Part shown: in pieces, positions 1-26,573 of the stretch
Layout of the letters: every line of letters starts with the position of its first letter
Numbering within the stretch: position 1 is the first letter of the stretch
DNA from: an uncultured Myxococcales bacterium
Lineage (GTDB): Bacteria; Myxococcota_A; UBA9042
Assembly (NCBI GenBank): GCA_903850505.1
Contig: CAINLT010000006.1
Span: forward strand, 15,536-79,535
DNA length: 64,000 bases
Reading direction: 5' to 3'
Program-made: the position numbers and the translations under genes
The notes under the pieces: model-generated
Told to the model about the DNA's origin: nothing
Database searches by the model: none
What the model saw: the letters and a program-made list of their open reading frames with translations, nothing else

Positions 1-4970
<4,970 letters not shown>

Positions 4971-7730: not shown

Positions 7731-7893
7731 GCGTTGCCCCTGCGATCCGCCCAAGCGCGGACGGCGTGGTTGTAACGCCGCTGGCAGCAAGCTGCAAATG
7801 GCGCTTTGGGAATGCACTGTGCATCTGCTGTGCTATGCTTCCAAGCGCCTGAAACCGGGCACGCCTCACTTATCCCCTCTGCGCGGGTCGTTC

Positions 7894-9663
7894 ATGCCGT
7901 TGCTCTACGCGCTTCTCATGCTTGTGCCGCTCGTGCTGTTCCACGAGTTCGGCCACTTCGTCGTCGCCCGCTGGATGGGTGTGCGCGTCTTGTCGTTCTC
8001 CATCGGCTTTGGCCCGGTGGTGCTGGAATGGCAGCGCAATGGGACGCAGTACGCCATTCGCGCGCTGCCCCTGGGCGGTTACGTGCGGATGCTGGGCGAT
8101 GATCCGTCCGCGCCGGCCGATCCTGAGTTGGCCAACGAGCCCGATGCGTTCACTTCCAAGCCGGTGTGGCGACGGACGCTGATCGTCGCCGCGGGGCCGA
8201 TTTTCAACTTCATCCTGCCGCTGTTCGTGCTCTTCGGCAGCGCGTTGGCGTTCCGGCAGCAGGTCGTGCCATCCGTCGTTGGCGCAGTGGTTCCCGGCGG
8301 TCCAGCGGCGATCGCGGGCCTGCGCACGGGCGACCAGATTCGCGCGATCGATGGCGAGCCCGTGGCGACGTTTGATGAGCTGGTTGACGCGGTCTCCGCG
8401 CGCCCGGGGAAGCTGACGAAGTTTTCGATTGAGCGCGCCGGCCAGCCGCGGGATATCCTCGTCACGCCGATTCGCCAGCGACAGATGATTCCGGAGCTGG
8501 GCATGGTCCGCTACGTCGGGCGTATCCAGGTCCTGGCGCAGCCGGAAGCGTCCGTGGTGTCCGTGCAGCCCGGCTCGGCGGCGTGGCAAGCGGGCGTGCA
8601 AAGTGGCGATCGCGTGCGCGCCGTGGAAGTGAACAGCAAGGTGACGCCGGTGGAGCGGTTTTACGAACTGGAAGATCGCCTGCGTCTCGCGCTCCAGCAG
8701 CACGCGCCCGTGACGCTGCACATTTCGCACCTGCGTTGGCAGACGGAAGTCAGCGGCGACACGCTGGAAAAGGCCGTCGAACACCCACACAACGACGCGA
8801 CCGTGCGCATCGCGGTTGCCCCGGGTCAGGCGGTCGACATGGCCGCGCTTGGTTTGCTGCCGCCGGGCGCGATTGTCGGTTCGCTGGAGAAAGCGACGCC
8901 GGCCGTGACGGAGGCGCACCTGCAGCCGGGCGACGAATTGCTGACGCTGGACGGCAAGCCGCTGACGTCCCTGATGCAACTCTACGACGAGCTGCGCCGG
9001 CCGTTCGACGACGTGCGCGGCAAGAAGGAGAACCAGGGCCGCGCGCCTGAGGAGATTCTGGCGCAGGCCAAGCTGGTGCTGAAGCCGCATCTTCTGCACT
9101 TGCGCCGCCGGGTCGCGCAGCCGCAGCCGGGTCAGGCGGATTTTGTCGAACTGGACACGCCGCTGACCTTGGGGATCGCGCTGTCGGCTGAGCACCGGCC
9201 GCATGCGCAAATCGGCATCGGACCGGCGACGGACTACACCGTCGCGCCGCTCATCGCCAATCCGCGGCCGATCGCGTCGGCGCTGACGTGGACCGGCGAG
9301 AAATTCGTCGAGGGCGCGGAGATGGTGTTCCGCACGCTCGCCGGGCTGTTCAAGGGCGATGTGCCGGTGCGCGAGGTCGGCGGACCGCTGTTCATCGCGC
9401 AGATCGCCAACAAAAGCGCGGAATTGGGCGCGGAAACATTTCTGGTGACGATGGCCGGGCTGTCGATCAATCTGGGCATCGTCAACCTGCTGCCGATTCC
9501 GCTGGTCGATGGCGGCCACCTGCTGTTCCTGCTGATTGAGGCGATTCGCCGTGGGCCGGTGCGCTTGCGGACCCGGCAAATCGCCGCGTACGTCGGCATG
9601 ACGTTCCTGGGGCTGCTGTTTCTCGTCGTGATGAAGAACGACATTGAACGGCTGATCCGCTGA
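7894..9663 (+). CDS. rseP: RIP (site-2) zinc metalloprotease RseP with PDZ domains
   Basis: An ATG at 7894 gives MPLLYALLMLVPLVLFHEFGHF, containing the HExxH motif. The C-terminal NLLPIPLVDGGHLLF motif is present. PDZ-like GLRTGDQIRAIDG and LQPGDELLTLDG are present. The track ORF start at 7453 is an upstream over-extension. Confidence 0.9.
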   Translation: MPLLYALLMLVPLVLFHEFGHFVVARWMGVRVLSFSIGFGPVVLEWQRNGTQYAIRALPLGGYVRMLGDDPSAPADPELANEPDAFTSKPVWRRTLIVAAGPIFNFILPLFVLFGSALAFRQQVVPSVVGAVVPGGPAAIAGLRTGDQIRAIDGEPVATFDELVDAVSARPGKLTKFSIERAGQPRDILVTPIRQRQMIPELGMVRYVGRIQVLAQPEASVVSVQPGSAAWQAGVQSGDRVRAVEVNSKVTPVERFYELEDRLRLALQQHAPVTLHISHLRWQTEVSGDTLEKAVEHPHNDATVRIAVAPGQAVDMAALGLLPPGAIVGSLEKATPAVTEAHLQPGDELLTLDGKPLTSLMQLYDELRRPFDDVRGKKENQGRAPEEILAQAKLVLKPHLLHLRRRVAQPQPGQADFVELDTPLTLGIALSAEHRPHAQIGIGPATDYTVAPLIANPRPIASALTWTGEKFVEGAEMVFRTLAGLFKGDVPVREVGGPLFIAQIANKSAELGAETFLVTMAGLSINLGIVNLLPIPLVDGGHLLFLLIEAIRRGPVRLRTRQIAAYVGMTFLGLLFLVVMKNDIERLIR

Positions 9664-9666: not shown

Positions 9667-10383
9667 ATGAACCTCATCGCGCTCACGACTTCGACGTCAC
9701 AGTGGTCCGTTTGGCTGCACCGCCAGGATGGCTGGCAACGCGCCGCGCATGCGGACGCGGGTCGCGGAACGGGCCAGCGCGCAAGCCTGACGCGGATGGT
9801 GTGGCAGCTGCTCGCGGAGGCGGACCTCCAGCCGTCGGACCTGCAGCGGGTGGTGTGCGACATTGGCCCCGGGAGCTTTACCGGGCTGCGCCAAGGACTC
9901 GCGCTGGCACGGGCGCTGGCGTGGGCAAATGCGATTCCGACTCACGGGGTGGGCTCGCTGCAATCGATGGCGTGGGCGGTCCAAGCGCAGCTCGCGACTG
10001 GCCAAACGTGCGCGGTGGCGCTGCCGGCGCGCGCGGACGTCGATTTCGTCGGCATCGGCGACGGCGCAACATTCACCGAGCGCGCATTGACGCAGCAGGA
10101 CGCGCTGGCGTGGTGGCAGGAAATTCGCCCTGACGTGCTCGCGATTCCCGCCGCCGATCTGGGACGCTCGTTGGCCAAAATGGCGCTGGCGCAGGGCGCG
10201 CAATGGCTGGAATTGCACCCGGAAGCCGAGGCAATGGGCCGCTGGAGCCTCGCACAGCCGGAGGCCGCATCGACGTTGGCGCCGCGCTATCTCGCTGTCT
10301 CTGAAGCGGAAAACCACGCAGGCGTGGCAGTGCCGGAAATCATGGTCGCGTCCGTTGACCGCAGTGGTGGCGGCGCCATCTAA
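9667..10383 (+). CDS. tsaB: tRNA threonylcarbamoyladenosine (t6A) biosynthesis protein TsaB
   Basis: IGPGSFTGLRQGLALARALA motif, about 238 aa. ATG lies 3 nt after the rseP stop. Confidence 0.8.
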   Translation: MNLIALTTSTSQWSVWLHRQDGWQRAAHADAGRGTGQRASLTRMVWQLLAEADLQPSDLQRVVCDIGPGSFTGLRQGLALARALAWANAIPTHGVGSLQSMAWAVQAQLATGQTCAVALPARADVDFVGIGDGATFTERALTQQDALAWWQEIRPDVLAIPAADLGRSLAKMALAQGAQWLELHPEAEAMGRWSLAQPEAASTLAPRYLAVSEAENHAGVAVPEIMVASVDRSGGGAI

Positions 10384-10393: not shown

Positions 10394-10422
10394 TTGTCAG
10401 CCGTTCGGCTGATCGGCACAAT
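10394..10422 (+). promoter_or_regulatory. Candidate sigma70-like promoter upstream of the pqqD-like gene
   Basis: TTGTCA (10394-10399), a 17-nt spacer, then CACAAT (10417-10422), in the 110-150 nt gap after tsaB. Sequence pattern only. Confidence 0.25.
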
Positions 10423-10492
10423 GAAGGCGGATGGGTGTCCGCTGAGTGCGCAACCTTTTTGCATCTCGCAGCAACAAAAGTTCAGGTGACCC

Positions 10493-10894
10493 GTGAGCCA
10501 CGCGGGACAACGGTCACTGAGCCACCCAAGGATGCACGGTACGATGACGGCAACCACTCAACTTCGCTACCGTTTGCACCCGCAAGCCGCCCACCGCAAG
10601 GTCGCTGGCGAAGTGTTCGTGGTCACGGGCGATCGGGCCTTTCATCGCATGCAAACCACCACGGCCATCGCACTTTTTGACGCGCTCGGGCAAGCCGAAG
10701 CGGGTGCAAGCCCTGGCGAGCTCGTGGCGGCGCTGTGCCAACAATTCGATGTGACGAAAGCGACGGCGGAAAACGACGTTGCGGATTTTATTGCTACGCT
10801 CGTGACGCGCCAATTGGCCGTGCCGGTCGATGCGCCGCGCACCGCAGCCGATCTTCCATCACCTGCCGACCCCCAAGCAGAGGTGACTCCATGA
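10493..10894 (+). CDS. PqqD-family peptide-binding protein (RiPP recognition element type)
   Basis: YRLHPQAAHRKVAGEVFVV...TTTAIALFDAL...SPGELVAALCQQFDV..A.NDVADFIATLVTRQL follows the PqqD pattern: strands, then a helical wing with D-V-x-x-F-[LI]-x-x-L. The true start may be ATG 10532 or 10544. The stop TGA 10892-10894 overlaps the next ATG (ATGA). Confidence 0.7.
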   Translation: MSHAGQRSLSHPRMHGTMTATTQLRYRLHPQAAHRKVAGEVFVVTGDRAFHRMQTTTAIALFDALGQAEAGASPGELVAALCQQFDVTKATAENDVADFIATLVTRQLAVPVDAPRTAADLPSPADPQAEVTP

Positions 10895-13800
10895 ATTCCA
10901 GCGACCTACGCACCCGGTTCACGCCTCTCGCCCGCCAGCCCATGGTCTGGTTCAGCCTGCTTTGCGCCGCAACCGCGCTGACCGCGTGCGCACCGGACAC
11001 GCCCGCGCCGCACCCCGCGTGCATTTGGGAGGACGGCTGCCCGTCGGCGGACGCGGAGGGCGACGGCCAAGTCGGCGATTCGTCTGACGTCACGACGACC
11101 GTCACGCGAACGCTGGTCTTTTCCATTGATACCGCCATCGGTCCCGTGCTGACCGGCGACGTTTCCATCGCGACAATTGGCCCGAATGCGGACAAGGATC
11201 CGGCGACAGTCGGCGTGCAAGTCGACGTTTCGGTGACGACCGGCAACGTGCCCGACGGCGCGGCGCTGGAAGTGCTGCTGGACGGCGTCAAAGTGGGATC
11301 GCCGCAGGTCGTGCTCAACAACGCCGGCCGGATCAACGGCATCACGTTGACGTGCACGGCGACCAACGCGCCGCACTCGATTTCCGTGCGCGCCATCGTC
11401 AACGCCGCCAAGGGCGACGCGGCCGTGAGCAAAGACAAGAGCCTGCTGGTCAAGTGCGCGCAGGCGTGCACCGCAACGGTCGATCCGCTCTCGCAGTCTT
11501 GCCTGACGCAGGACCAGGATCCGCAGACGCCGGGGTTCCAGCAGAGTTTCATCGTGCACAGCGACCAGCCGGATTGCACGGATGCGTACCTGCTCGTGGT
11601 GGGCCCGCCGGGAACGCCGACCGAGACGGTGCATGTGGCGCTGAACGGTTCGACGTCTGTGCCGGTGATGGCGACGCTCGCGGTCGATGAAGCCGGGCTC
11701 ATCGGCGTGACCGCGACGGTGATCGGCGTGGTTGAAGATACCAACAATCCGGATCGCCAGTCCGTGCCGTCCGCGCCAGTGAGCGCGGTCATCACGACGG
11801 AAGCGCCGACGATCGTGCTGATGCAGCCGGCTTCGGGCCAGATCAAGCTGAGCGACGACACGGATCCGGCGACGCCGGGCATCCAGATTACCCTGATCGG
11901 CATGGCGACGGCGCTGACGTCTGCCGACAAGAACGCGATCGAGCTGTATGTGGACGGTACGCTGACGACGAAGACGACGCAGCAGATCGACGGGCAGTTT
12001 GTCATTCCGCTGAGTTTCACGACGACGGGAACGCACGCGCTGCTGGTGAAAGCGACCAACGGTTGCGGGCTGAGCGGCCAGAAGTCGAAATCGCTGGCGG
12101 TGTTCGTCGACAAGGCGGGACTCGCGATCCTCGCGCCGACGCAGGATGTCGTGCTTCACGTGGCGGACGACCTGGACAAGACGACGGCCGATATCCTCGA
12201 CACGACGCTCTCGGTCGCTGTGACGACCGAGACCGCGGGCACCGATCTGGAGGTCTACTGCAAGCCCAAGATCGCCAAGGCCTACCCGACGACGCCGACT
12301 GCGACCGTGCTCTACAGCGACGCCTCGCTGCAGACGGTCGATATCCCGCTGTCGCTGTCGGTCAGCCAGCTGGGTCAGGAAATTGAGTGCCGCGTGCAGG
12401 ACAACTCGCCCAACCAGACGGTGAGCGCGCCGGTGGGCTTTGTCGCCGCGTTGCCGCCGCCGTGCCTGCATGTGATTACGCCCGCTGCAGCGGTGACGGT
12501 GACGACCGCTGGCGTGGAATTCCTGCTGGCGACTTCCGGCTTGGACGGCCAAATCGTGCAGGGCTACCTGATCACGCCGAGCGGCGTGCCGCTGGATGCC
12601 GTGGATCTGGGCACGCCGGTGACCAACGGTCTCGCGGGCACGTTCCCGCTGCTGGACGGCGGCGTGCAGGTTCCGGACGGCACGTACACGCTGTCGTTCC
12701 AGGCGATGGACAAATGGGGCAATTTTGCCGGTCAATCGCTGTGCTCGGACGTCACGCGGACGGTGACCATCGACACGACGCCGCCGACGCTGGTGATTAC
12801 GCTCCCGGTCAAGGCGACGCTGACGACGCTGGACGATCCGGACAGCGATCCCGCGAAGCCGGGCTACCAGATCGACGTAGAAGTGACGATTACCGACGCC
12901 CATGTGGTGTGCCTGAACGTCGACGGCGTCCTGTTCGCGTGCAATGCCAACGTGCCGGAAGGCGCGGGCGTCGTCGTGTTCCACGATGTGACGCTGCAGC
13001 CGGGGCTGACGGCGCTGTCCGTGTACGGCTCGGACATCAACGGCAACACTTCCGCGCCGGCGCCGACGCTCGTGACGCTGATCTCTGACGTGCCGATCGT
13101 GAAGTTTATCTCGCCGGTCGGGTCACTGAAGGTCGCCAGCGACAGCGTAACGTTCACCGTCAGCGTGACCAGCCCGACCGACGGCTTGCCCGTGACGGCG
13201 GCGACGCTGGAAATCCTGCAGAACAGCGTGGCCATGCCGGTGACGCCGACGGAAACCGCGCCCGGCGTGTACACCTTCACGTTGAGCGGCTTCTCGTCGG
13301 GCGTGACGACCGTGCAAGTGGGCGCCTTCGTGCCCGCGCTACCTGACAAGAAAGGCTATTCGGGCGAAATTACGGTCACGTTCAAGGGCGACTTGCCGAC
13401 GGCGACGATCAGTTCGCCGACCGAAGGCCTTGTGTTCAACGCCAGCAACCTGACCTGCGCGCTGGGTCAGGCGGACTGCGTGTTGCCGGTCGCCGCGACG
13501 TTCACCAACGTCGAAGACGGCAGCGCGGTCGAACTGACCGTGACGTGCGGCGGCAGCGTCAGCAAGACCACCGGCACCGTTCAGGGCGGCAACGCCAAGC
13601 TGGCCAACGTCAAGCTGCTGGACCAGAACGCCTGCGAGCTGTCGCTTGCGGTCACGGACGCTGCGGGCCAGACCGCGGTCTCGGCGGTCATCCACGTCAC
13701 GGTGGATCGCATCGCACCGGCATTTGGCGAGCTCAAGTCGCCGACCCCGTACGGCGGCCTGACGCTGCTGGCGATCAACGATCTGGACGCCGATCCGACC

Positions 13801-16800
13801 AATGGCATGCAGGTGAACTGGGTCCAACAAATCGCTGGCGTGCCGGCGGGTGCGACGGTGACGTGCGATGTGACGGACGATCTGGGCAAGTCCGCGCCCG
13901 GCTTCTCGACGAACGTGGCGACGACGACGTCCGACGCGGTGTTCGAGTCGGTCAGTTTCGGCGCCATCACCCTGCCCAACGGCTACAACATCAAGATCGT
14001 CTGCACAGTGAAGGATCTCGCGGGCAATCAGACCCAGAAGACGCTGCTTGCGCAGGTCCTCGCCGACTTGCCGCAGGTCATCATGAGCACGCCGTACCCG
14101 AACGCCGATCCGTGCGCGGGCAATGGCGATTGCTCGTTTGGCGGTTTCTGCTACCAAAAGATCTGCACCGCGCCGTGGAACAAGACGAGCGACCGCAAGC
14201 TCGCGTTCACGACCACCGGCCTGCCCGACGGCGCGGCTGCGCGGCTCTGCACCAACACGCCTGGCGTGACCGGCACCGCGTGCGCGACCGCCGGCTACGT
14301 GTCAATCGGCAGCATCACCGTCCAGAAATCCGCGGCGACGTTTGACCTCAGCAATCTCGCGGACGGCAGCTACCACGTCATGGTGGAAGTCTTCTTCGCC
14401 GCCAAGACCACTTGGGTCACGTCGCTCGACAGCGGCTTCCTCAAAGGTCGCGAACGCGCGCTGCTCATCGACACCGTGCCGCCGCAAGTCGCCAGCGTGA
14501 CCGGTCCGAGCGCGCCGGGTGTGCCCGCCGCTTGCCTCGCCGCCGCTTCGCAATCCGTGGCCGATGGCCAGCAGCCCGGCGGCAAGTTCCAGTTCCAGAT
14601 CGCGATGGCCAACGAGGACGCGACCGTGTCATTGCTCGTCAACAACGTCTCGGCCGGGTCACTGACGACCGTGGGCAAGAGCGGCGCGCTGGCCGTCACG
14701 ATCGCGACGGAAGGGACGGCGACGTTTGAAACTGTGGCTGTCGATCTGGTCGGCAACGTCAGCGACATCCAGCAGTTGCCTTCGCTGTTCGTCGACACGA
14801 TCGCGCCCAATGGCGATTTTTCGACGCCGGCCAAGTCGCCGCTGATCGTGGGCGACAACCGCGACGTTGCCGTGGTCAGCGTCAATGACGACGTCGAAAA
14901 CGAGCCGGTCACGGTCAAGGACCTCGGCCTCGTCAAGGCGGCGCAGAACTTCATCGCCGGCACCGCGCTGTTCCCGGACGCGACTTTCGGCCTGCTGTCC
15001 GAAGGCTCGCATACGCTGACGGCGGATCTGCGCGATCACTGCGCCAATACCTCTACGATCGGGTCGACGCCCGCCGTGGTCGTTGTCGACACGCAGCCGC
15101 CGACGCTGGCGATCACTGCGCCGTCGGAGGGCTCGCTGTTCACGGACAACGATGATGCGGCGCCGGCGCAGAGCGGCTATCAGGTCGCGCTGACGTTCTC
15201 GACGACCGGCGCGGCGACGTGGACGCTGGAGCTTGGCACGGACTGCGATTCGGGTTCCCTGAATTGCCCGAGCTACCAGCCGGCCGGGACGGGCACAATC
15301 GCCAATCCGGGTGGCCTGGAAGCTCCGGTGCTGGTGACGGTGCCGTTTGGCAACACCGTGCACTACAAGTTCCGGCTGACGGCCGTGGACAGCGCCGGCA
15401 ACAAGACGCTCGCGACGCGCGGCTTTGACGTGCTGCTGTCGGGCTGCCTCGTCAAGCTCACCGGCTTGCCGAGCAATGGCATGCTGAACACCCAAAAATG
15501 CGCGACGCCGGGGCAGAATTGCGCCAGCGTGGTCGTTCCCTTGACTGCCTCCTACGTCGGTCCGTGCGGCGCGGCGACGGCGATCAAGCTGATGAAGGGC
15601 GGACTGGAAGTTGCCACCGTCACGCCGTCAGCGCAGGCCGCGGCGTTTGACGTGACGATCGTCGATGGCGACAGCACGGACTTGGAAGCCGTGGTGTTCG
15701 AGGGGCTCAATGCCAAGGGTTCGTCGGGCAAGCTCGGTATCGCCGCTGACCTGACCAATCCGACCGTCAGCTTTGCCGCCGCGACCGTGCTCGGTTCGCC
15801 GACCGTGTCCGGTACGAGCGCGCTGCAAGGCAAGGACCAGGACTTGAACGCCGGCACGCCGGATCACCAGGTTCACATGCAATTGGCGCTGGCGGATGCG
15901 CATTTGAACGGCGGCAAGCTCACGGCGCTCGACCGCACGGTCAATGGCGCCACGGCGCCGCTCAGCAATGCGTCGGTGACGCCGCCGGTCGCGCTGACGG
16001 GTGCGGCGCAGTCGCTCGATGTCCAGTATGCCTCGCTGCTGGCCGATCAGGTCAACACGGTGAAGGCGACGGTGCAGGACAGCTTCGGCAACACCGGATC
16101 GGCGACCCTCGTCGTGACGGTGGACTGGCTGGCGCCCGCGGCGATTACGCTCGATGCGCTGGTGCCCGCGAACCTGAATCCGCGCCGCCCGTCGGCCAAG
16201 CTGACGTTCCAGGCGGTCGGCGACAATGGCGTGACCGGCACCGCGACGAGCTATCAGGTGCGGTATGCCAAAAAGGCGTTCACGACGCAGGCTGAGTTTG
16301 ACGCTGCGTGCGATCCGAGCCAGATCGCGGGCTTCACGGCCGTCATCCCGGCCGCGTCGGGTACATCGGACAGCGTGACGATCTCCGGCCCCGACGGCCG
16401 CAATCCCACCAACCTGTGCAAGTTCACGCCGCTCACGGACAACGGCATCTCGTCGTATTACTTCGCCATCGTCGCCGTCGACGCGGCGGGCAATAAAGGC
16501 CCGATGTCCAACGTCGTGTCGACCGACAAATTGCGGCTGAACTACCAGCGCATTACCAACAGCGGCGGCACGGGCTCGACATACGACCAACTGGCCTACC
16601 GCGCCCGCGTCTTTGGCCTGGGCGACCTGAACGGCGACGGCTTTGCCGATGTCGGCTTGGGCGGCGGCGCCACCACGCCGTTCTGCATCCTGTATGGCCG
16701 CGCGGGCAACGCGGACATCGACCTCGCGACCGAACCGGCGACGACGCTGCAGTGCCTGCCCAACGCGGGCGGCCTGGGCGGCGTGGTCGGCGGTCCCGCA

Positions 16801-18048
16801 GACGTCAACGGCGACGGGCTGAGCGACCTCGTCATCGGCGCCAAGACCGGCAGCGGCGTGCCGCGCGAAGTCTGGGTCTACCTCGGCAACAAGGGCGCGC
16901 AGTTGAATGCGACGCCAGCCGTGATCATCACGGGCGTCGTGGCGACGACCGCGACGGCGGCCGGACCGCAGCGCTTGCAGACCGTGGGCAACTTCAACGG
17001 CGACGTTTCAGCCAGCGGCAAGCCGGTCATGGACATCGCCGTGCGCAGCGCCAAGGACCTGAACTACGCACAGTCGGAGACGGTCTACGTGATTCCGGGC
17101 AATCCGGGCTGGTCCAACGCTTCTCCGCTGACCATCACGCTGACCAACGCGCTGGACCGCAGCAACAACAATATCGTCCGCGTGCGTTTGAGCGATGGCA
17201 CGAACACGTCGACGCTGTTTGGCCAGAACTTCCACGGCGGCAACGTGCTGCTGGAGAATGGCGGCGTCGGTCAGCAGTTTGACGAATTGGTCGTGTCGCA
17301 GCAGGCGTCGCCGCAGCAGGTCAACGTCATCCGCGGTCGTGAGCTGTCGGGCGCGCTCGACCTGATGATGACGTCGGCGAGCACGGGCGTGCAGCCCAAT
17401 GACGTGGACACGGTGCGCATCTTCCAACAGACCGGCACCGGCCAGCAGTCCTTTGGCGCCTACTTCGATCTCGTCGAGTTCGATGGCAAGCCCGGTCTTG
17501 ACCTGGCGATTCAGCACCAGACCGGCGGCGTGGCCGACCATCCCGGCTTCTACTGGCTGCGCGGCTCGGCCATTCAGGCTGCCGCTGTCGCGCCCCCGCA
17601 GAACACGATCACGCTGTACATCACAGCGGCGGTCGCGGGCTTCACGGATCTGTTCTCTGTGGGCGCTGGCTACCTCAGCTGGTCGTTCGTTTGGGGTCCG
17701 CAGAACACCGGGAATTTCTTTGATGATCCGAGCGCGGGCACGCACACGGACGTCATGTACGCGCGCCCGCCGTTCACCGGCGCCACGGGCGGTGGCCAAC
17801 AGGTCATCTTGCGCATGGCGGTGCCGCGGACGGAAACGGCCAATGAAGTTGGTTTCGTCTATGAAGACGTGGTGATCACCGACCCGTTCGTGCCGACCAA
17901 TAGCCTCTTCGGCTACAATGTCACGGCGCCCGGCGGTCTCGGTTTCGCACCAGCGGGAGACTTCAACAAGGACGGCTTCGTCGACCTGATCATCGGCTCA
18001 GCCGACGGCACAGGCGGCGTCAAGGGCAGCACGCTCATCGTTTACTAA
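10891..18048 (+). CDS. Giant surface lipoprotein: many Ig-like domains plus C-terminal FG-GAP/VCBS (integrin-alpha-like) repeats
   Basis: An ATG at 10891 gives MNSSDLRTRFTPLARQPMVWFSLLCAATALTAC, which contains a lipobox. This is followed by about 1900 aa of T/V/A/D-rich beta-sandwich-like segments. The C-terminus has GDLNGDGFADVGLGG, ADVNGDGLSDLVIGA and GDFNKDGFVDLIIGS. The track start 10735 is an over-extension into pqqD. Confidence 0.85.
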   Translation: MNSSDLRTRFTPLARQPMVWFSLLCAATALTACAPDTPAPHPACIWEDGCPSADAEGDGQVGDSSDVTTTVTRTLVFSIDTAIGPVLTGDVSIATIGPNADKDPATVGVQVDVSVTTGNVPDGAALEVLLDGVKVGSPQVVLNNAGRINGITLTCTATNAPHSISVRAIVNAAKGDAAVSKDKSLLVKCAQACTATVDPLSQSCLTQDQDPQTPGFQQSFIVHSDQPDCTDAYLLVVGPPGTPTETVHVALNGSTSVPVMATLAVDEAGLIGVTATVIGVVEDTNNPDRQSVPSAPVSAVITTEAPTIVLMQPASGQIKLSDDTDPATPGIQITLIGMATALTSADKNAIELYVDGTLTTKTTQQIDGQFVIPLSFTTTGTHALLVKATNGCGLSGQKSKSLAVFVDKAGLAILAPTQDVVLHVADDLDKTTADILDTTLSVAVTTETAGTDLEVYCKPKIAKAYPTTPTATVLYSDASLQTVDIPLSLSVSQLGQEIECRVQDNSPNQTVSAPVGFVAALPPPCLHVITPAAAVTVTTAGVEFLLATSGLDGQIVQGYLITPSGVPLDAVDLGTPVTNGLAGTFPLLDGGVQVPDGTYTLSFQAMDKWGNFAGQSLCSDVTRTVTIDTTPPTLVITLPVKATLTTLDDPDSDPAKPGYQIDVEVTITDAHVVCLNVDGVLFACNANVPEGAGVVVFHDVTLQPGLTALSVYGSDINGNTSAPAPTLVTLISDVPIVKFISPVGSLKVASDSVTFTVSVTSPTDGLPVTAATLEILQNSVAMPVTPTETAPGVYTFTLSGFSSGVTTVQVGAFVPALPDKKGYSGEITVTFKGDLPTATISSPTEGLVFNASNLTCALGQADCVLPVAATFTNVEDGSAVELTVTCGGSVSKTTGTVQGGNAKLANVKLLDQNACELSLAVTDAAGQTAVSAVIHVTVDRIAPAFGELKSPTPYGGLTLLAINDLDADPTNGMQVNWVQQIAGVPAGATVTCDVTDDLGKSAPGFSTNVATTTSDAVFESVSFGAITLPNGYNIKIVCTVKDLAGNQTQKTLLAQVLADLPQVIMSTPYPNADPCAGNGDCSFGGFCYQKICTAPWNKTSDRKLAFTTTGLPDGAAARLCTNTPGVTGTACATAGYVSIGSITVQKSAATFDLSNLADGSYHVMVEVFFAAKTTWVTSLDSGFLKGRERALLIDTVPPQVASVTGPSAPGVPAACLAAASQSVADGQQPGGKFQFQIAMANEDATVSLLVNNVSAGSLTTVGKSGALAVTIATEGTATFETVAVDLVGNVSDIQQLPSLFVDTIAPNGDFSTPAKSPLIVGDNRDVAVVSVNDDVENEPVTVKDLGLVKAAQNFIAGTALFPDATFGLLSEGSHTLTADLRDHCANTSTIGSTPAVVVVDTQPPTLAITAPSEGSLFTDNDDAAPAQSGYQVALTFSTTGAATWTLELGTDCDSGSLNCPSYQPAGTGTIANPGGLEAPVLVTVPFGNTVHYKFRLTAVDSAGNKTLATRGFDVLLSGCLVKLTGLPSNGMLNTQKCATPGQNCASVVVPLTASYVGPCGAATAIKLMKGGLEVATVTPSAQAAAFDVTIVDGDSTDLEAVVFEGLNAKGSSGKLGIAADLTNPTVSFAAATVLGSPTVSGTSALQGKDQDLNAGTPDHQVHMQLALADAHLNGGKLTALDRTVNGATAPLSNASVTPPVALTGAAQSLDVQYASLLADQVNTVKATVQDSFGNTGSATLVVTVDWLAPAAITLDALVPANLNPRRPSAKLTFQAVGDNGVTGTATSYQVRYAKKAFTTQAEFDAACDPSQIAGFTAVIPAASGTSDSVTISGPDGRNPTNLCKFTPLTDNGISSYYFAIVAVDAAGNKGPMSNVVSTDKLRLNYQRITNSGGTGSTYDQLAYRARVFGLGDLNGDGFADVGLGGGATTPFCILYGRAGNADIDLATEPATTLQCLPNAGGLGGVVGGPADVNGDGLSDLVIGAKTGSGVPREVWVYLGNKGAQLNATPAVIITGVVATTATAAGPQRLQTVGNFNGDVSASGKPVMDIAVRSAKDLNYAQSETVYVIPGNPGWSNASPLTITLTNALDRSNNNIVRVRLSDGTNTSTLFGQNFHGGNVLLENGGVGQQFDELVVSQQASPQQVNVIRGRELSGALDLMMTSASTGVQPNDVDTVRIFQQTGTGQQSFGAYFDLVEFDGKPGLDLAIQHQTGGVADHPGFYWLRGSAIQAAAVAPPQNTITLYITAAVAGFTDLFSVGAGYLSWSFVWGPQNTGNFFDDPSAGTHTDVMYARPPFTGATGGGQQVILRMAVPRTETANEVGFVYEDVVITDPFVPTNSLFGYNVTAPGGLGFAPAGDFNKDGFVDLIIGSADGTGGVKGSTLIVY

Positions 18049-18089
18049 TCAGGTCAATCAACGCCGACAAGGCGGCGAAGGGGAAACAC

Positions 18090-18266
18090 ATGAACCACAC
18101 GGAACACCAGCAGAACGTCCAACAAAGCCAGAGCGATCGGCAGACGGCGCGGCAGCCGTACGTCAAGCCGGAAGTCGAGACCTTGGGCGGCGCGCTGACC
18201 ACGCTGCTGGCGTCGGGCTGCCAGTGTGCGATTTGCCCGCCGGATCCCCAAGCGGACAACGTCTGA
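18090..18266 (+). CDS. Candidate RiPP precursor peptide (58 aa), not in the supplied ORF track
   Basis: My translation: MNHTEHQQNVQQSQSDRQTARQPYVKPEVETLGGALTTLLASGCQCAICPPDPQADNV. SD-like AAGGGG at 18078-18083, 6 nt before the ATG. Third-position G/C is high. Sits directly upstream of the kinase-like and rSAM/SPASM genes. Confidence 0.6.
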   Translation: MNHTEHQQNVQQSQSDRQTARQPYVKPEVETLGGALTTLLASGCQCAICPPDPQADNV

Positions 18267-18268
18267 AC

Positions 18269-19105
18269 GTGACGCGCGCGTTGGCCCCTTCCTTTCGGCG
18301 TTGGGCGTCGCGATTTGGCGACTCGGCCTATGCGGTGGACCTGCCGGACGCGTTTGGCACCGTGCGCCGTCCGTGGCGCGGGCCTGTCGACGCGGATCTC
18401 GTCTTCCAGTTTGCTGCTGAAGCCACCGCGGCACCTTTGGGCGAAGCAGCGACGAAGTTCTCGCGCCTCGACGCCGATGGCTTTGCGTTTACCGCGGCGT
18501 CGTGCCACGGCGCGGGTTGCTGGGCGGAGCGCGCTGGGACCGTCTACCTGCACGACGGCGAGCAATCGCCGCTGACCCGCGTCCAGATGCTGCAGGAGGC
18601 GCTGTTTGCCCCGGTTTACGGCCAGTTGCTCCTGCAAGGCGGCCTGCTCCTGCACGCCGCGACGCTGTGGATCGATGGCCACGCCTACGTGGTGGCGGGC
18701 TACTCGACCGCCGGCAAGACGACCCTGAGCGCGCGATTCGCGCCGAATTGGCTGAGCGATGAGCACGCGTTCCTCGCCCGCGATGGCGACAAGTGGCAGG
18801 TCCTCCGCCACATTGATTTCCGCGGCAACGAAGGCGATTTTCCCTGGCGCGCGCCGCTCGCCGGTCTGCTCTGGCTCGGTCCGGATCGCAGCCAGTCGCG
18901 GGTCACGCCGTTGTCGCCGGGGGACGCGCTGCAGCGGCTCCTGCCGCAGGCTTTGGTCGCAGGTCCGCCGACTTCCGCGCTTGTGCTGGACGCTGTCGCA
19001 CACCTGTGTCAGCAATTGCCGGTGATGGAACTGAGCCACAACCTTGCAACTTCCGTTGCAGACTTGGCGGAAATGATCGCGGGAGCGAGCCATGGCACAA
19101 GGTGA
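18269..19105 (+). CDS. HPr kinase/phosphorylase-related P-loop protein (HprK-related kinase family)
   Basis: LLLHAATLWIDGHAYVVAGYSTAGKTTLSARF...LSDEHAFL matches the HprK C-terminal-domain pattern H-G/A..x..G.g.l..G.S..GK[ST]. A GTG at 18269 lies 3 nt after the precursor stop. The track start 18224 would overlap the precursor core. Confidence 0.65.
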   Translation: MTRALAPSFRRWASRFGDSAYAVDLPDAFGTVRRPWRGPVDADLVFQFAAEATAAPLGEAATKFSRLDADGFAFTAASCHGAGCWAERAGTVYLHDGEQSPLTRVQMLQEALFAPVYGQLLLQGGLLLHAATLWIDGHAYVVAGYSTAGKTTLSARFAPNWLSDEHAFLARDGDKWQVLRHIDFRGNEGDFPWRAPLAGLLWLGPDRSQSRVTPLSPGDALQRLLPQALVAGPPTSALVLDAVAHLCQQLPVMELSHNLATSVADLAEMIAGASHGTR

Positions 19106-20279
19106 TGACGCCAGCCAGCTCGACGGCTTTCTCACGGCGCTGAGGGCGGCGTGGGCAACCGAAGACCGCCCGGTCAGCGCGCACCTGGACGTGACGTATC
19201 GCTGCGACCTCGATTGCGCGCACTGCTACCTCGACAACCGGACGACCTGGCCGGAGATGACCACGGCGGAGTGGCTCGACGTGCTGCAGCAATTGCACGA
19301 CGCGGGTGTCCTGTTCCTCGTTTGGAGCGGCGGCGATGTGCTGATGCGCAGCGATTTTGCCACGCTCCTGACGCGCGCCGCGGAGCTGGGCCTGCTGAGC
19401 CGCGTGAAGACCCACGGCGGCCAAGTCGACGCCACGTGGGCGCGCCTGTTCGCAGACAGCAAGGTCATCCGCACCGACGTCAGCGTGTACAGCTTGCGTC
19501 CTGAGATCCACGACGCGCTGACGCGGCGACCGGGTTCGCTCGTCAAAACACTCAACGGCGTCGCGGCATTGCGGGCAGCGGGCGTGCCGGTCAAGGTTTC
19601 CTGCTGGGTGCAGCCGGCGATCATCGACGAGATTGCCGCGCTGAGTCAGCACTTCACCGCGATGGGCTGCACGATCAGCTTTGAGACGCGCACGACGCTG
19701 GACCTTTCGGCGTCGGCCAACCTGGACGCGATGCGACTGGAGGGCGACGATCTCCTGCGGGCGCGCGTCGCGATCCTGCGGGCGCAGCCAGTGGCCAAAC
19801 CGACCGCGATCGCCGATCGGACGGTCCACGATCCTTGCGGCGCGGGGCGGACGCTCGTGTACATCAGCCCGGACGGCGAGCTGTGGCCGTGCATCAACTT
19901 TCCCATGGCGCTTGGCAACCTGCGCGAGAAGCCGTTGCTGGAGATCTGGCGCGAATCCGCAGCGCGCAAGAGCCTCGTCGCGTGGGACAACCGCGCGCGG
20001 ACGACGTGCCAAAGCTGCGCCGGCAGCGGCTTCTGCTTTTTCTGCCCCGGCGACGCGTACAAGACCACCGGCGATTTCCGCAAAGCGCCCGATGTCTTCC
20101 ACGCCGAAACACGTGCCAAGATGATCGCGTGGGAGCAGGTCAACGGCGACACGTTCAGCGCCGCGGACTGGTCCAGCGTGCCGGACGAAAGCGGCCGCGC
20201 GCCTGCCGCCAAACAGTTCATCTTCCCGATCCACCGGCCGAAACGCGGCGCCGGCGCTCGGGTCACGCAGGCCAAATGA
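19092..20279 (+). CDS. Radical SAM / SPASM-domain peptide-modifying enzyme
   Basis: VTYRCDLDCAHCY provides CxxxCxxC, and WSGGDVLM is a GGE-like SAM motif. The C-terminal SPASM-like cysteines are CGAGRTLVYISPDGELWPC ... CQSCAGSGFCFFCPGDAY. Overlaps the kinase gene by 14 nt. Confidence 0.85.
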   Translation: MAQGDDASQLDGFLTALRAAWATEDRPVSAHLDVTYRCDLDCAHCYLDNRTTWPEMTTAEWLDVLQQLHDAGVLFLVWSGGDVLMRSDFATLLTRAAELGLLSRVKTHGGQVDATWARLFADSKVIRTDVSVYSLRPEIHDALTRRPGSLVKTLNGVAALRAAGVPVKVSCWVQPAIIDEIAALSQHFTAMGCTISFETRTTLDLSASANLDAMRLEGDDLLRARVAILRAQPVAKPTAIADRTVHDPCGAGRTLVYISPDGELWPCINFPMALGNLREKPLLEIWRESAARKSLVAWDNRARTTCQSCAGSGFCFFCPGDAYKTTGDFRKAPDVFHAETRAKMIAWEQVNGDTFSAADWSSVPDESGRAPAAKQFIFPIHRPKRGAGARVTQAK

Positions 20280-20680
20280 CGCTCACGTGGCACGATCTGA
20301 CCGGGCGGTCCATGTGGCCATTGGGGGCGCCGATGCAGGCTGGCGTGGCGCCGGTCGCGGCAAAGTCGCTGCATGTCGGCGACGTCATTGCCTTCATCGC
20401 CAGCGACGCGCCGGTCCTCTGGCTGCATCGCGTCGTGCGGGTTGAAGCGGGTGCGATCGTCACGCGTGGCGACACCAACGGCTACGACGATCCGCCGGTG
20501 CCGTTCGCCGCGGTGCTTGGGCGGGTTGAAGCGGTGCGGATCGGCACGCTTGTGCTGCCGCTGCCGCATTCCGGTCGCCTCGGCGCGCTGCATCGCCGCG
20601 CTGGTCTCGCGTGGTCGCATCTCGCGCCGGCCTTGCGCCGTTTGCCCGCGGTGCGGGGGCGGACACGAAAAGGCGCATGA
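20276..20680 (+). CDS. Soluble S24/S26 (SipW/Sec11-like, S26B-type) serine peptidase domain protein
   Basis: 134 aa. GRSMWPL corresponds to the G-S-M-x-P nucleophile box. LHRVVRVEAGAIVTRGDTNGYDDPPV matches the H-R-[IV]...T-K/R-G-D-x-N...D..P box. No N-terminal TM anchor. The ATG overlaps the rSAM stop (ATGA at 20276-20279). Confidence 0.6.
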   Translation: MTLTWHDLTGRSMWPLGAPMQAGVAPVAAKSLHVGDVIAFIASDAPVLWLHRVVRVEAGAIVTRGDTNGYDDPPVPFAAVLGRVEAVRIGTLVLPLPHSGRLGALHRRAGLAWSHLAPALRRLPAVRGRTRKGA

Positions 20681-21693
20681 CGATCCTTGACAGGAGCGAA
20701 CGCCAAGGTACTGTGACCGGGGGCGCGCCGCAGGTGGCGCCATCGGGTGCTGTGTTGAAATCAACTGTGACTTCAGGCTATTGCCAACACCTATCCACAA
20801 CCCTGATCGCACGGGCGATTCGCTTGAGCGCGCCGGTTGTTTTGCTGGGTCTGCCGGCATGCGCCAACGATCAGCTCGCGCAGGTACGCCACGATGCCAC
20901 GGCGATGCGGGAAGAGCTCGCGGAAGTGAAGCGCAGCCAGACTGCGTCCCGCATCCAGTTCGAAGAACTGCGCAATCGACTCATCCTGATTGAAGACAAG
21001 GCCGACTCAGAAAAGGTCGCCCGCGCCCGCCGCGAAGAGTGGATTCCGCGGCTGCCGACGGTGAAAGTGGGCGAACCCGATGCCCATGTCGACGCCCGCG
21101 ACCAGGTTGGCCTGCCATCCAGCATTCCCAAGATGGACATGCCGCAAAAGGACATGCGCTCGGCCAACCAGCTGAGCGCGCAGACGATTCACCTGACGCA
21201 TGATGATCCGCTGCCCGGCGAAGCGAACGACGATCCCGTCGAAGTTTCCGGTCCAGCCGATGAGACGCCGCCGCAGGCCGCTGGCGCCAAGGCCAAGCTC
21301 GATCCGACCGCGTCGCTGTACGAAAAGGCCAAGTCGCTGTTTGATCAAGGGCAAATCGCCGAGTCGCGGCGGGTCTTTGAGACGCTGCACCGCCAGTACC
21401 CGCGGCATGATCTTGCCGACAACGCGCTCTACTGGATCGGTGAAGGCTACTACGCCCAAGCGCAGTGGCTCACGTCCGCCCAGGCATTCCTGCGGGTCGC
21501 CAAAGAATATCCGCGCGGCAACAAAGTGCCGGATGCAATGCTGAAAATGGCTTTGTGCTACCGCAAGTTGGGCGACGATCGCGGCGCGGACGACGTGCTG
21601 AAACAGTTGACGCGGCTGTATCCGGGTACGGAAGCGGCGGACAAGGCGACGGCGATGAAGAAGACGTCCGCCGATGGCACGGCTCAGCCGTAA
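20677..21693 (+). CDS. YbgF/CpoB-like TPR protein (coiled-coil N-terminus, C-terminal TPR)
   Basis: The C-terminus LYEKAKSLFDQGQIAESRRVFETLHRQYPRHDLADNALYWIGEGYYAQAQW...YPRGNKVPDAMLKMALCYRKLGD is the YbgF-type TPR signature. Possible signal/lipobox VVLLGLPAC. The start is uncertain: ATG 20677, or GTG/TTG around 20752-20767. Confidence 0.7.
   Translation: MTILDRSERQGTVTGGAPQVAPSGAVLKSTVTSGYCQHLSTTLIARAIRLSAPVVLLGLPACANDQLAQVRHDATAMREELAEVKRSQTASRIQFEELRNRLILIEDKADSEKVARARREEWIPRLPTVKVGEPDAHVDARDQVGLPSSIPKMDMPQKDMRSANQLSAQTIHLTHDDPLPGEANDDPVEVSGPADETPPQAAGAKAKLDPTASLYEKAKSLFDQGQIAESRRVFETLHRQYPRHDLADNALYWIGEGYYAQAQWLTSAQAFLRVAKEYPRGNKVPDAMLKMALCYRKLGDDRGADDVLKQLTRLYPGTEAADKATAMKKTSADGTAQP
20687..20714 (+). 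promoter_or_regulatory. Candidate sigma70-like promoter for the downstream TPR/LysM genes
   Basis: TTGACA (20687-20692), a 16-nt spacer, then TACTGT (20709-20714). The next ~80 nt have visibly A/T-richer third positions, suggesting non-coding leader. Pattern only. Confidence 0.25.
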
Positions 21694-26561: not shown

Positions 26562-26573
26562 CGGGAGGCCCGC

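Follow-up and report, generated by a model that had tools for sequence, protein, structure and literature searches.

The closest characterised system to the locus analysed here is the 'linear polyphosphorylated peptide' (LPP) pathway of Bacillota. There, three proteins (an RRE, an HprK-like kinase and a SipW-like peptidase) work on a YxxPxVLxHQxIxFETxxS leader, with cleavage after Tyr+15 and phosphorylation on Tyr+18, which is Ser3 (Popov et al., Nat Commun, May 2026; PMC13381572). The LPP leader peptidase, LppS, is a soluble, RRE-dependent signal peptidase I of the SipW/archaeal type (S29/H68/D93); the paper describes LPPs as confined to Bacillota and nowhere mentions radical SAM enzymes (PMC13381572). 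HprK-like kinases are a typical tailoring of phosphorylated lasso peptides, and YxxPxL leaders are bound by lasso B1 RREs (PMC13381572).

Here we describe a locus in a 64,000-nucleotide stretch of an uncultured Myxococcales genome (the window) that encodes a small Cys peptide and, as its predicted tailoring set, an RRE, a kinase-like ATPase, a radical SAM enzyme and a protease resembling signal peptidases, a combination not yet described. The preliminary description was upheld in its reading of a RiPP-type operon that encodes a stand-alone PqqD RRE, a Cys precursor, an HprK-fold P-loop protein, a radical SAM/SPASM enzyme and a soluble S26B-type peptidase. On balance, we judge it somewhat probable that the product is an RRE-guided, Cys-crosslinked and probably phosphorylated ribosomal peptide cleaved by a signal-peptidase-like enzyme.

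Organisation of the locus

Six co-oriented genes spanning positions 10544–20680 (forward strand) are chained by overlaps or tiny gaps, and each junction described previously was found in the sequence: the pqqD-like stop and the start of the following gene share an ATGA (10891–10894), a 41-nt gap separates the end of the giant ORF (18048) from the small-ORF ATG (18090), the small-ORF stop (18264–18266) precedes the kinase-like GTG at 18269, the kinase-like stop (19103–19105) and the radical SAM ATG (19092) give a 14-nt overlap, and the radical SAM stop and peptidase ATG share an ATGA (20276–20279). A further ATGA (20677–20680) couples the peptidase gene to a YbgF/CpoB-like gene, so that start and stop codons overlap at four junctions; gene order and translational coupling were read directly. 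Promoter-like hexamers in the tsaB–pqqD intergenic region (TTGTCA-17-CACAAT, 10394–10422, +; 9/12 match) are a weak candidate, as the 2 such sites in 12.5 kb, with 0.9 expected, are not above chance.

The YbgF/CpoB-like TPR protein (20677–21693, +; NCBIfam tol_pal_ybgF 99 bits, cut-off 90.1) is encoded after the peptidase gene in all Myxococcota relatives examined; in locus L037, judged by eye, a lipoprotein with a similar N-terminus follows. Inspection of clusters from distant phyla did not reveal the gene, which is probably a housekeeping neighbour, though synteny cannot part it from the module. No exporter or immunity gene was found near the locus.

Precursor peptide and recognition element

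The small ORF (18090–18266, +) follows a Shine-Dalgarno-like AAGGGGAA, has a GC3 of 0.83 and encodes a 58-aa peptide, MNHTEHQQNVQQSQSDRQTARQPYVKPEVETLGGALTTLLASGCQCAICPPDPQADNV; public assemblies annotate it as a gene, without a name. Its leader motif is Y24-x-x-P27-x-V29, followed by S42 at Tyr+18 and by Cys at 44, 46 and 49, the first at Tyr+20. Every relative keeps this ORF (9 orthologues). A precursor HMM, whose seeds included the small-ORF sequence itself, matched only this ORF in the 64-kb window (E = 3.8e-9). Across several phyla, 20 precursors share invariant Y24, P27 and C44. The first Cys is found in 26/26 precursors, with a fixed spacing to the RRE motif, and Ser or Thr occupies Tyr+18 in 10/10 Myxococcota precursors. 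This nameless family is marked by a YxxPx[VIL] leader and a first Cys 18–20 residues past the Tyr, while within the lineage the core holds 1 to 4 Cys (a single one in the L036 orthologue) and the C-termini vary. Distant precursors have an invariant C-terminal Ser that is missing in the myxobacterial lineage. Judged by this sequence conservation, the small ORF is a genuine precursor peptide.

The discrete PqqD-family RRE (116 aa, 10544–10894, +) scores 34.7 bits against Pfam PqqD (cut-off 23.4); alternative starts lie at 10532 and 10493, and public assemblies call both 116-aa and 120-aa forms. Among proteins of solved structure it comes closest to the lasso B1 RREs TbiB1 (E = 1.6e-4) and TfuB1. 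This stand-alone protein would bind the 58-aa peptide via Y24-V-K-P27-E-V29, and the complex would offer the junction and core to three enzymes. In L037, the PqqD gene is absent from the 16.5-kb contig.

Predicted maturation enzymes

The folds and motifs of the three enzymes are observed; the chemical steps, the step order and the cleavage and phosphorylation sites are inferred. The radical SAM/SPASM peptide maturase (395 aa, 19092–20279, +) exceeds the cut-off for both Pfam domains (Radical_SAM 67 bits, SPASM 45 bits), with CX3CX2C at C38/C42/C45 and the SPASM Cys cluster CQSCAGSGFCFFC, and lacks an N-terminal RRE domain. The profile assignments proposed earlier stood for PqqD, Radical_SAM and SPASM, whereas the HprK-related and peptidase models stayed below cut-off. 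The maturase matched 53 NCBIfam radical SAM families, all far below cut-off, with NirJ2, AhbD, TIGR04053, ScmE (88 bits, cut-off 400), PqqE (85, cut-off 381) and MftC (82, cut-off 265) at the top; heme-pathway enzymes lead these matches, and the chemistry is not readable from sequence. Of the solved structures, that of the sactisynthase SkfB comes nearest (E = 1.6e-15), ahead of SuiB and PqqE. The enzyme would modify the Cys-bearing core, most likely by a Cys-derived thioether crosslink of the sacti- or ranthipeptide-like kind. We consider it unlikely, but worth weighing, that the product is essentially an LPP-like linear (poly)phosphorylated peptide and that the radical SAM enzyme does something other than form a Cys thioether, for example C–C or C–N crosslinking, epimerisation or oxidation of the invariant Cys. 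The RRE/kinase/SipW-like-peptidase core and the Tyr+18 Ser would fit LPP, the best radical SAM matches span heme, PQQ, mycofactocin, sactipeptide and streptide enzymes, and the L036 core has one Cys only; the invariance and fixed spacing of the first Cys, the sactisynthase as best solved relative and the Cys-rich cores, which are typical of sacti- and ranthipeptides, argue instead for the thioether.

The same matches bear on the peptide-derived redox cofactor of PQQ or mycofactocin style that the preliminary description had entertained. PqqE and MftC are among them, the parts list runs parallel (small peptide, PqqD, radical SAM/SPASM and peptidase) and the locus is vertically inherited in the core genome, but both scores fall far short of the curated cut-offs, and neither pathway uses a kinase or a protease of the signal-peptidase type. 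Because the core, Cys number and C-terminus vary within the lineage, unlike in PqqA or MftA, and no PqqB/C/F, MftD/E/F or cofactor-dependent dehydrogenase genes were found nearby, we regard a cofactor as very improbable.

The putative kinase of the crosslinked-peptide pathway that we favour is a 278-aa P-loop protein of the ScmC family with a PEPCK/HPr-kinase fold (18269–19105, +, GTG start). It had no match in the Pfam copy searched, but all homologues carry a precomputed PF27840 'ScmC' match. Its NCBIfam scores are below cut-off (ScmC 35 vs 125, HprK_rel_A 21 vs 200, HprK_rel_B 19 bits); with ScmC as the nearest model and no PqqD_rel_X match, the suggested membership of an 'HPr-rel-A system' was not sustained. 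Walker A and the SDE motif are intact, and G144, S146, A148, G149, K150, T152 and D164 are invariant in the alignment. The AF2 model (pLDDT 92.5) matched PEPCK (E = 1e-7) and HPr kinase 1knx (E = 2e-4) in Foldseek, and the protein is a predicted peptide kinase. With ATP it would phosphorylate Ser/Thr, with S42, the counterpart of LPP Ser3, as the leading candidate; the target in this lineage is uncertain because the C-terminal Ser of distant precursors is missing.

The predicted leader peptidase (134 aa, 20276–20680, +) is a soluble serine peptidase of the Sec11/SipW type (S26B) with candidate catalytic residues S12 (GRSMWP), H51 (LHRV) and D66 (RGD). It scores 29 bits against NCBIfam sigpep_I_arch (archaeal signal peptidase I; cut-off 51.85), and its family profile, A3, matches human SEC11A (E = 2.2e-9) with the Ser/His/Asp motifs aligned. 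M13, P15, G35, H51, R52, D66 and G82 are invariant in the family, 10/15 members match Pfam Peptidase_S24, and 3 homologues have Cys for the catalytic Ser. The enzyme would cut off the leader, in an RRE-dependent manner, between T38 and C44; a cut at the LPP-equivalent position would place Leu at −1, an unusual residue there for signal peptidases.

A giant lipoprotein linked to the module

The gene between pqqD and the small ORF, one of the six operon genes and passed over in the preliminary description, encodes a 2385-aa protein (10891–18048, +) with a signal peptide, an LTAC lipobox (read by eye), Ig-like domain arrays and a C-terminal FG-GAP region (Pfam Big_13, Big_3_3, FG-GAP, FG-GAP_3). 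One identical copy is known, and the other full-length homologues share between 79% and 32% identity; they are followed by the small ORF, ScmC-like, radical SAM and peptidase genes wherever the contig reaches that far (that of L036 ends at the small ORF); in L037 this linkage is kept under a different upstream flank. By this sequence linkage, the giant lipoprotein is a conserved module member, and it would serve as a conserved pathway partner at the surface. In the operon of distant relatives, a large secreted protein of the Peptidase_C25 family occurs instead. The conserved surface lipoprotein and these C25 proteins point to a role of the product in the cell envelope rather than as a classical diffusible antibiotic.

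That the enzymes act on the lipoprotein itself, or attach the peptide to it, with the peptide as prosthetic or partner element or mere scaffold and not a free natural product, seems to us quite improbable. The translational coupling of its gene to pqqD inside the operon, the linkage that persists at 32% identity and beside another upstream flank, the missing exporter gene and the distant C25 proteins (the family of sortase-like PorU) would suit such a role. However, the giant protein has no detectable similarity to the C25 proteins or to an 889-aa protein of L022, and Nitrospira-type clusters do without any large protein. Since the flanks are likewise conserved, inherited synteny could account for the adjacency, and the exported lipoprotein would be separated from maturases with a predicted cytoplasmic location.

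Distribution and origin

The precursor family occurs beside ScmC-like/PqqD/radical SAM/peptidase sets in at least 6 other phyla. Among 27 non-myxobacterial loci gathered by ScmC similarity alone, the adjacent genes include radical SAM/SPASM in 26/27, PqqD in 25/27, an S26B-like peptidase in 23/27 and a YxxP/Cys precursor in 22/27, and a peptide-only search recovered a further ScmC–PqqD–radical SAM cluster (L039). L022 holds peptide, ScmC, PqqD and radical SAM genes together with an LPP-type NTP_transf_5 gene, which ties the LPP type and ScmC/radical SAM type systems together. It is extremely unlikely that the genes form no functional unit and that the small ORF or the adjacency arose by chance: the housekeeping flanks are syntenic too, so lineage conservation alone is no proof of function, but such a reading is contradicted by the co-occurrence of four protein families and the peptide in unrelated phyla with different flanks, as well as by the peptide-only recovery of L039 and the four overlapping junctions.

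Synteny of the locus and its housekeeping flanks extends to relatives with a giant protein of only ~40% identity, and on this evidence the locus has been inherited vertically and is no recent acquisition. The accessory or foreign origin proposed earlier is thereby contradicted; the excess of A/T-ending codons claimed for two genes held for pqqD (GC3 0.63), the only one with low GC3, but not for the kinase-like gene (0.785, against 0.787 for tsaB and 0.844 for rseP).

Comparison with known systems

As the preliminary description had already held, the locus is not a PQQ, mycofactocin or lasso pathway, and it stays below the curated cut-offs of the SynChlorMet, HPr-rel-A, PQQ and mycofactocin families. 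With the sacti- and ranthipeptide maturases (SkfB, AlbA, StsB, PapB) it shares a radical SAM/SPASM enzyme acting on the Cys core of a leader-bearing peptide, the crosslink here being predicted; it differs in a separate RRE protein rather than an N-terminal domain, in curated family scores far below cut-off and in its kinase and S26B peptidase. Paeninodin-type lasso systems, tailored by an HprK-like kinase and a nucleotidyltransferase, likewise combine a B1-type RRE, a [Y/W]xxPx[L/V/I] leader and an HprK-fold kinase, and the C-terminal Ser, the phosphorylated residue in paeninodin, is invariant in distant ScmC-type superfamily members; here, however, the lasso cyclase and B2 protease are absent, and the myxobacterial lineage has lost this Ser and has no nucleotidyltransferase. 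SynChlorMet (SCM; TIGR04249–04251: ScmC, ScmE and ScmF, with a PqqD homologue) is likewise a predicted peptide-modification cassette of ScmC-family, PqqD and radical SAM/SPASM proteins, and PF27840 bears the ScmC name, but scores are far under the equivalog cut-offs and one radical SAM enzyme is encoded here rather than two, together with a peptidase, a recognisable precursor (to our knowledge, none has been identified for SynChlorMet) and the giant lipoprotein.

The likeness to LPP extends to a discrete lasso-type RRE, a soluble SipW/archaeal-type leader peptidase (a predicted one here) with a Ser-to-His spacing of 39 residues in both, an HprK-like kinase (likewise predicted here) and a YxxPxV leader motif with a Ser exactly 18 residues past the Tyr. 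In contrast to LPP, the myxobacterial cluster has neither the NTP_transf_5 nucleotidyltransferase nor the MsbA-like exporter, its leader is without the HQxIxFET part and its kinase-like protein belongs to the ScmC family, while it adds a radical SAM/SPASM maturase, a Cys-bearing core and a giant lipoprotein gene in a Myxococcota host.

Operon organisation and codon usage

The cluster lies on the + strand downstream of rseP (to 9663) and tsaB (9667-10383), both on the same strand, with a 160-nt spacer before its first gene. It comprises a PqqD-like gene (10544-10894), a 2385-aa ORF (10891-18048), a 58-aa ORF (18090-18266), a 278-aa kinase-like P-loop gene (18269-19105), a radical SAM (rSAM)/SPASM gene (19092-20279) and a 134-aa peptidase-like gene (20276-20680). 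Reading of the sequence reproduced every junction listed in the preliminary description (ATGA at 10891-10894, a 41-nt gap before and a 2-nt gap after the 58-aa ORF, a 14-nt overlap of the kinase-like and rSAM genes, and ATGA at 20276-20279), and its observation as a whole was confirmed; its interpretation, a novel RiPP or peptide-derived-cofactor operon, is partly supported overall. The rSAM/SPASM gene is thus translationally coupled within the operon. The next gene, YbgF/CpoB-like, is joined to the peptidase gene in the same way, by an ATGA at 20677-20680. An Rfam scan of the window gave no match, and terminator-like sites occurred at chance level.

The region and the window as a whole do not differ in G+C content, and third-position GC was 0.63 in pqqD, 0.785 in the kinase-like gene, 0.787 in tsaB, 0.83 in the small ORF and 0.844 in rseP. 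The earlier suggestion that the pqqD-like and kinase-like genes favour A/T-ending codons therefore stands for pqqD and falls for the kinase-like gene, which is close to tsaB. Because only pqqD is low, the compositional hint of an accessory origin fails, and a foreign origin based on codon usage was rejected.

The precursor peptide

The small ORF is preceded by a ribosome-binding site (AAGGGGAA), its third-position GC is typical of coding sequence, and it is called as a gene, without a name, in public assemblies. Its expected conservation beside the rSAM gene was borne out: all related contigs long enough to include the site have an ortholog there. These orthologs share a P-Y-x-x-P-x-V-E-[ST]-L-G-G...L-L-A-S-G-C block, and the Cys-containing tail behind it varies more. 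Judged by its sequence relatives, the small ORF is a genuine precursor.

An HMM of 14 peptides, including the window peptide, was run on every stop-to-stop segment in the window and in 34 loci. Matches separated cleanly, all those with E<0.02 lying on the cluster strand beside maturase genes and noise beginning at E>0.1; the window yielded exactly one, the 58-aa ORF, itself among the HMM seeds. Across 20 precursors from several phyla, Tyr24, Pro27 and Cys44 are the only invariant positions, and the first Cys always falls 18-20 residues past the Tyr. Profile searching of 5.8 billion proteins recovered 143 such peptides, all annotated as 'hypothetical' and lacking a Pfam or NCBIfam family, and no NCBIfam model matched the window peptide or six diverse precursors. 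Fifteen of the 16 distinct tabulated precursors from outside the window's lineage end in Ser (...PITS, ...INS, ...LQS, ...PRAS/PRPS, ...GGS, ...LGS), examples among comparison loci L004-L032 being those of L010 (about 12195-12356) and L016 (about 9460-9660). The exception, L037, is the most distant giant-lipoprotein relative, and the other nine Myxococcota peptides mostly have D-x-x ends without a conserved C-terminal Ser. By these sequence features the peptides form a recognisable precursor family, with a YxxPx[VIL] leader, a first Cys at Tyr+18 to +20 and, in most phyla, a C-terminal Ser.

One of two independently looked-up homologs, on contig L038 (8001-8117; MKKTYEKPAIIHTEKIEARAVSCAKSDEAVCGAGPIQS), is an orphan without maturase genes within 8 kb, so the peptide family is not always clustered. 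Its neighbours are an ECF sigma/anti-sigma pair, two unnamed secreted proteins and an 832-aa FG-GAP protein.

Predicted maturation proteins

The PqqD-like protein scores 34.7 bits in Pfam, where the PqqD family requires 23.4. Among solved structures it matches only two lasso-peptide RREs, TbiB1 and TfuB1, and in NCBIfam only lasso and PQQ PqqD models, all below cut-off. The rSAM protein has Radical_SAM and SPASM domains above the Pfam cut-offs, with C38/C42/C45 forming a CX3CX2C motif and a C-terminal SPASM auxiliary-cluster group of Cys residues. Its N-terminus lacks an RRE domain, which makes sense of an RRE encoded separately. In NCBIfam, 53 curated rSAM families match the protein, none near its cut-off; its best solved relatives are the thioether-forming SkfB (E=1.6e-15), SuiB and PqqE.

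The kinase-like protein had no match in a local Pfam copy, including Hpr_kinase_C; all its homologs carry the precomputed Pfam assignment PF27840 'ScmC'. Its NCBIfam scores are all below cut-off, at 35.4 bits for ScmC (cut-off 125), 21.1 for HprK_rel_A and 19 for HprK_rel_B (cut-offs 200). Alignment of 16 homologs revealed the invariant pattern LH.A...G.S.AGK.T...SDE, and an AF2 model (pLDDT 92.5) matched PEP carboxykinases (E about 1e-7) and the HPr kinase/phosphorylase 1knx (E=2.4e-4). Searched against the PDB by sequence, the ScmC profile gave P-loop-level matches only, the fold becoming visible from the structure model. Pattern and model together therefore predict for the protein a PEPCK/HprK P-loop fold whose nucleotide site is intact.

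The 134-aa peptidase alone reached 29 bits against archaeal-type signal peptidase I in NCBIfam, below the 51.85 cut-off. A profile of 15 family members matched human SEC11A and SEC11C (E=2e-9 to 2e-8; SEC11A 2.2e-9), with the SM.P, HR and GD motifs aligned, and M13, P15, H51, R52 and D66 are invariant in the family. As an N-terminal membrane anchor is also not evident, the original designation of a soluble S26B-type peptidase was right. In three homologs (L015 6244-6711, L027 12110-12589 and L034 3777-4445) the nucleophile Ser is replaced by Cys (GxCMxP), a swap expected of the nucleophile position, which suggests thiol variants of the signal-peptidase fold.

The giant lipoprotein and conservation in the lineage

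The 2385-aa protein carries a signal peptide whose LTAC lipobox was identified by eye; Ig-like Big_13 and Big_3_3 domains follow, and FG-GAP repeats make up its C-terminal part. Another FG-GAP protein, which also has an ASPIC/UnbV domain, is encoded at 32370-34307 (-). The ScmC-like protein has few close homologs (13 proteins, 45-92% identity), and in a species-level genome set these occur only in four 'uncultured Myxococcales' MAGs. All of their loci have the order rseP-tsaB-pqqD-giant-smallORF-scmC-rSAM-peptidase-ybgF-lysM-FHA. Searching with the giant protein reached deeper relatives: of three contigs at 39-41% identity, two preserve the complete gene order with the same flanks and the third (L036) ends just past the small ORF, and at 32% identity L037 (3320 aa) keeps the giant-smallORF-scmC-rSAM-peptidase block behind a different upstream flank, with no PqqD gene found on the contig. 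This shared order down to 32% identity shows that the locus is old and vertically inherited in the lineage, and that the conserved block includes the lipoprotein gene. That the enzymes act on the lipoprotein, or attach the peptide to it, is an improbable alternative to the maturation of a separate small peptide.

A region kept downstream in all relatives (23026-27500) encodes an FHA-domain coiled-coil protein followed by an AAA ATPase, DUF1257, DUF2997 and an unnamed gene. Two very large proteins of 1633 and 1114 aa, encoded at 69-4970 (+) and 52810-56154 (-), are full of MopE-type putative Cu/metal-binding motifs (Pfam Cu-binding_MopE E=3.5e-104 for the former).

Related clusters in other phyla

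ScmC similarity alone was used to gather 27 loci from outside the lineage, including Nitrospira, Chloroflexota/Ardenticatenaceae, Gammaproteobacteria, Acidobacteriota, Kiritimatiellia and Cytophagia. The ScmC-like gene is adjoined by an rSAM/SPASM gene in 26/27, PqqD in 25/27, an S26B-like peptidase in 23/27 and a YxxP/Cys precursor in 22/27, and 21/27 contain all four proteins; these counts come from HMMs iterated on the same locus set, every listed match having E<=1e-23. This cross-phylum co-occurrence essentially excludes chance adjacency of the genes. The wider ScmC-like superfamily comprises 7,532 protein clusters (50% identity) in public data at E<=1e-10 against the profile, and the gene set of the window recurs in loci of Nitrospira, Chloroflexota, Acidobacteriota, Gammaproteobacteria and Kiritimatiellia. 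Members of the Nitrospira-, Chloroflexi- and Acidobacteria-type clusters do not reach the SCM (SynChlorMet) or HprK_rel cut-offs, which rules them out as curated SCM cassettes.

Nitrospira-type clusters have three rSAM genes, and most single-rSAM clusters contain a large Peptidase_C25 protein inside the operon. One or two such proteins (860-2525 aa) lie beside precursor genes in L004, L009, L010, L012, L015, L027, L032 and L039; the literature searched offered no explanation for their presence in ScmC-type operons, and by BLAST the window's giant protein has no similarity to the C25 proteins or to an 889-aa protein of the acidobacterial locus L022. The L022 rSAM protein is the closest outside Myxococcota (36% identity). 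An NTP_transf_5 nucleotidyltransferase occurs in Nitrospira-type clusters and in L022, where Wzy_C O-antigen-ligase-like and NTP_transf_5 genes precede the peptidase, ScmC, PqqD and rSAM genes (6408-8970), a context that echoes the polysaccharide-locus setting reported for 'linear polyphosphorylated peptide' (LPP) clusters.

Proposed pathway and possible role

In the proposed pathway, PqqD would bind the YVKPEV leader and present the junction and core. The rSAM/SPASM enzyme would act on Cys44, which is invariant, with Cys46 and Cys49 as probable further targets, most likely forming thioether crosslinks; another rSAM chemistry is unlikely. The ScmC-family protein may phosphorylate a hydroxyl. 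Ser42 is the leading candidate, since this lineage lacks the C-terminal Ser that is invariant in other phyla. The Sec11-type peptidase would cut off the leader between Thr38 and Cys44, at L39/L40 by LPP geometry or at A-S-G/C by a small -3/-1 rule. The precursor family and these concrete cleavage- and phosphorylation-site predictions go beyond what curated models offer. No exporter, immunity gene or nucleotidyltransferase was found in the cluster neighbourhood.

A cofactor route of the PQQ or mycofactocin kind, to which the preliminary description had likened the parts list, is very unlikely because the core varies and pathway-specific genes are absent (no PqqB/C/F or MftD/E/F in the cluster neighbourhood). 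Membership of either system, which would call for an invariant core of the PqqA/MftA type, was rejected on the same variable core and on scores of 85 against 381 bits for PqqE and 82 against 265 for MftC. If the RiPP model is true, the locus belongs to a large RiPP superfamily, so far uncurated, that would unite RRE/HprK-like kinase/SipW-like peptidase logic with radical-SAM/SPASM crosslinking of Cys-rich cores, hitherto studied apart.

As speculation, a cell-envelope role seems more plausible than antibiosis, because the lipoprotein is always linked, C25 surface proteases take its place in other phyla, and the locus sits stably in a core-genome position among envelope genes (rseP, cpoB-like, LysM); such a role would be unusual among RiPPs. 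A more specific version, to which we give little credence, holds that the matured peptide is a dedicated partner of the giant surface lipoprotein, either binding it or linked covalently to it or the envelope, rather than a free natural product, and that the PorU-like Peptidase_C25 proteins in the same operon position elsewhere perform equivalent attachment or processing. If true, this would be a widespread, vertically inherited 'RiPP-for-the-cell-surface' system with a radical-SAM-crosslinked, phosphorylated peptide as envelope component. PPK1 (28567-30792) and a Ppx/GppA phosphatase (30805-32364) lie ~8 kb downstream of the cluster, PPK being syntenic in relatives; the proximity of PPK1 is probably coincidence, and is noted because related LPP kinases build polyphosphate chains on peptide Ser.

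Comparison with known systems

SynChlorMet (TIGR04249/04250/04251) membership was rejected on scores of 35.4 against 125 bits for ScmC and 88 against 400 for ScmE; that system needs two rSAM/SPASM proteins (ScmE and ScmF, each with at least 400 bits), whereas the operon has one rSAM gene, and ScmF was not among the 25 matches listed. The suggested HPr-rel-A system (TIGR04352) does not apply either, given the HprK_rel_A score and the sub-cut-off lasso and PQQ matches of the PqqD protein. The exclusion of a lasso cluster was upheld, Asn-synthetase-like cyclase (C) and transglutaminase-like protease (B2) domains being absent from the operon proteins and their neighbours. The CX3CX2C rSAM motif, the SPASM domain and the Cys-containing core agree with those of sacti- and ranthipeptides, the Cys sulfur-to-carbon thioether crosslink being predicted here.

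In the LPP clusters of Bacillota (Popov et al., Nat Commun 2026, PMC13381572), precursors carry YxxPxVLxHQxIxFETxxS, LppK polyphosphorylates core Ser3, and LppS (S29/H68/D93) cuts after Thr-1 only when the leader is presented by LppB, unphosphorylated precursor being cleaved poorly. According to that paper, no SipW-type peptidase had been known from a RiPP pathway before and LPPs are Bacillota-restricted; radical SAM enzymes are not mentioned. The combined logic of RRE, HprK-like kinase and SipW-like leader peptidase was thus shown, for LPPs, only in 2026. Our searches found no literature on SynChlorMet, or on ScmC, HPr kinase/HprK or SipW joined with radical SAM, and an LPP-type pathway combined with a radical-SAM enzyme, described in no paper found, seems new.

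Like LPP clusters, the window operon has a discrete PqqD/B1-like RRE gene and a SipW/archaeal-type signal peptidase I homolog, with a Ser/His/Asp triad recognised through the family profile and a Ser-to-His spacing of 39 residues (S12 to H51), equal to that in LppS. The kinase-like protein, with its predicted PEPCK/HprK fold and intact P-loop, is a candidate counterpart of LppK but belongs to the ScmC family and has no Hpr_kinase_C match. The window peptide has YVKPEV and Ser42 at Tyr24+18 but lacks the HQxIxFET segment. LPP cleavage follows Tyr+15, a Thr, with the phospho-Ser at Tyr+18 (PMC13381572), whereas the window peptide has Thr at Tyr+13 and Tyr+14. Position Tyr+18 is Ser or Thr in each of the ten Myxococcota orthologs, and in loci L031 and L032 E-E-T-L-[SA]-[ST] at Tyr+13 to Tyr+18 resembles the LPP F-E-T-x-x-S. 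Most of the distant precursors have Ala at Tyr+15 and a small residue at Tyr+13, which fits a signal-peptidase site at the LPP position. The LPP core set includes an NTP_transf_5 nucleotidyltransferase and an MsbA-like exporter, both absent from the window neighbourhood (tblastn found no NTP_transf_5 homolog in the 64-kb window), and its product is linear, without another class-defining maturase, whereas the window cluster has the coupled rSAM/SPASM gene. On this comparison LPP is the closest CHARACTERISED system, and the cluster's mode of working would most resemble an LPP-type pathway to which a radical-SAM maturase has been added.
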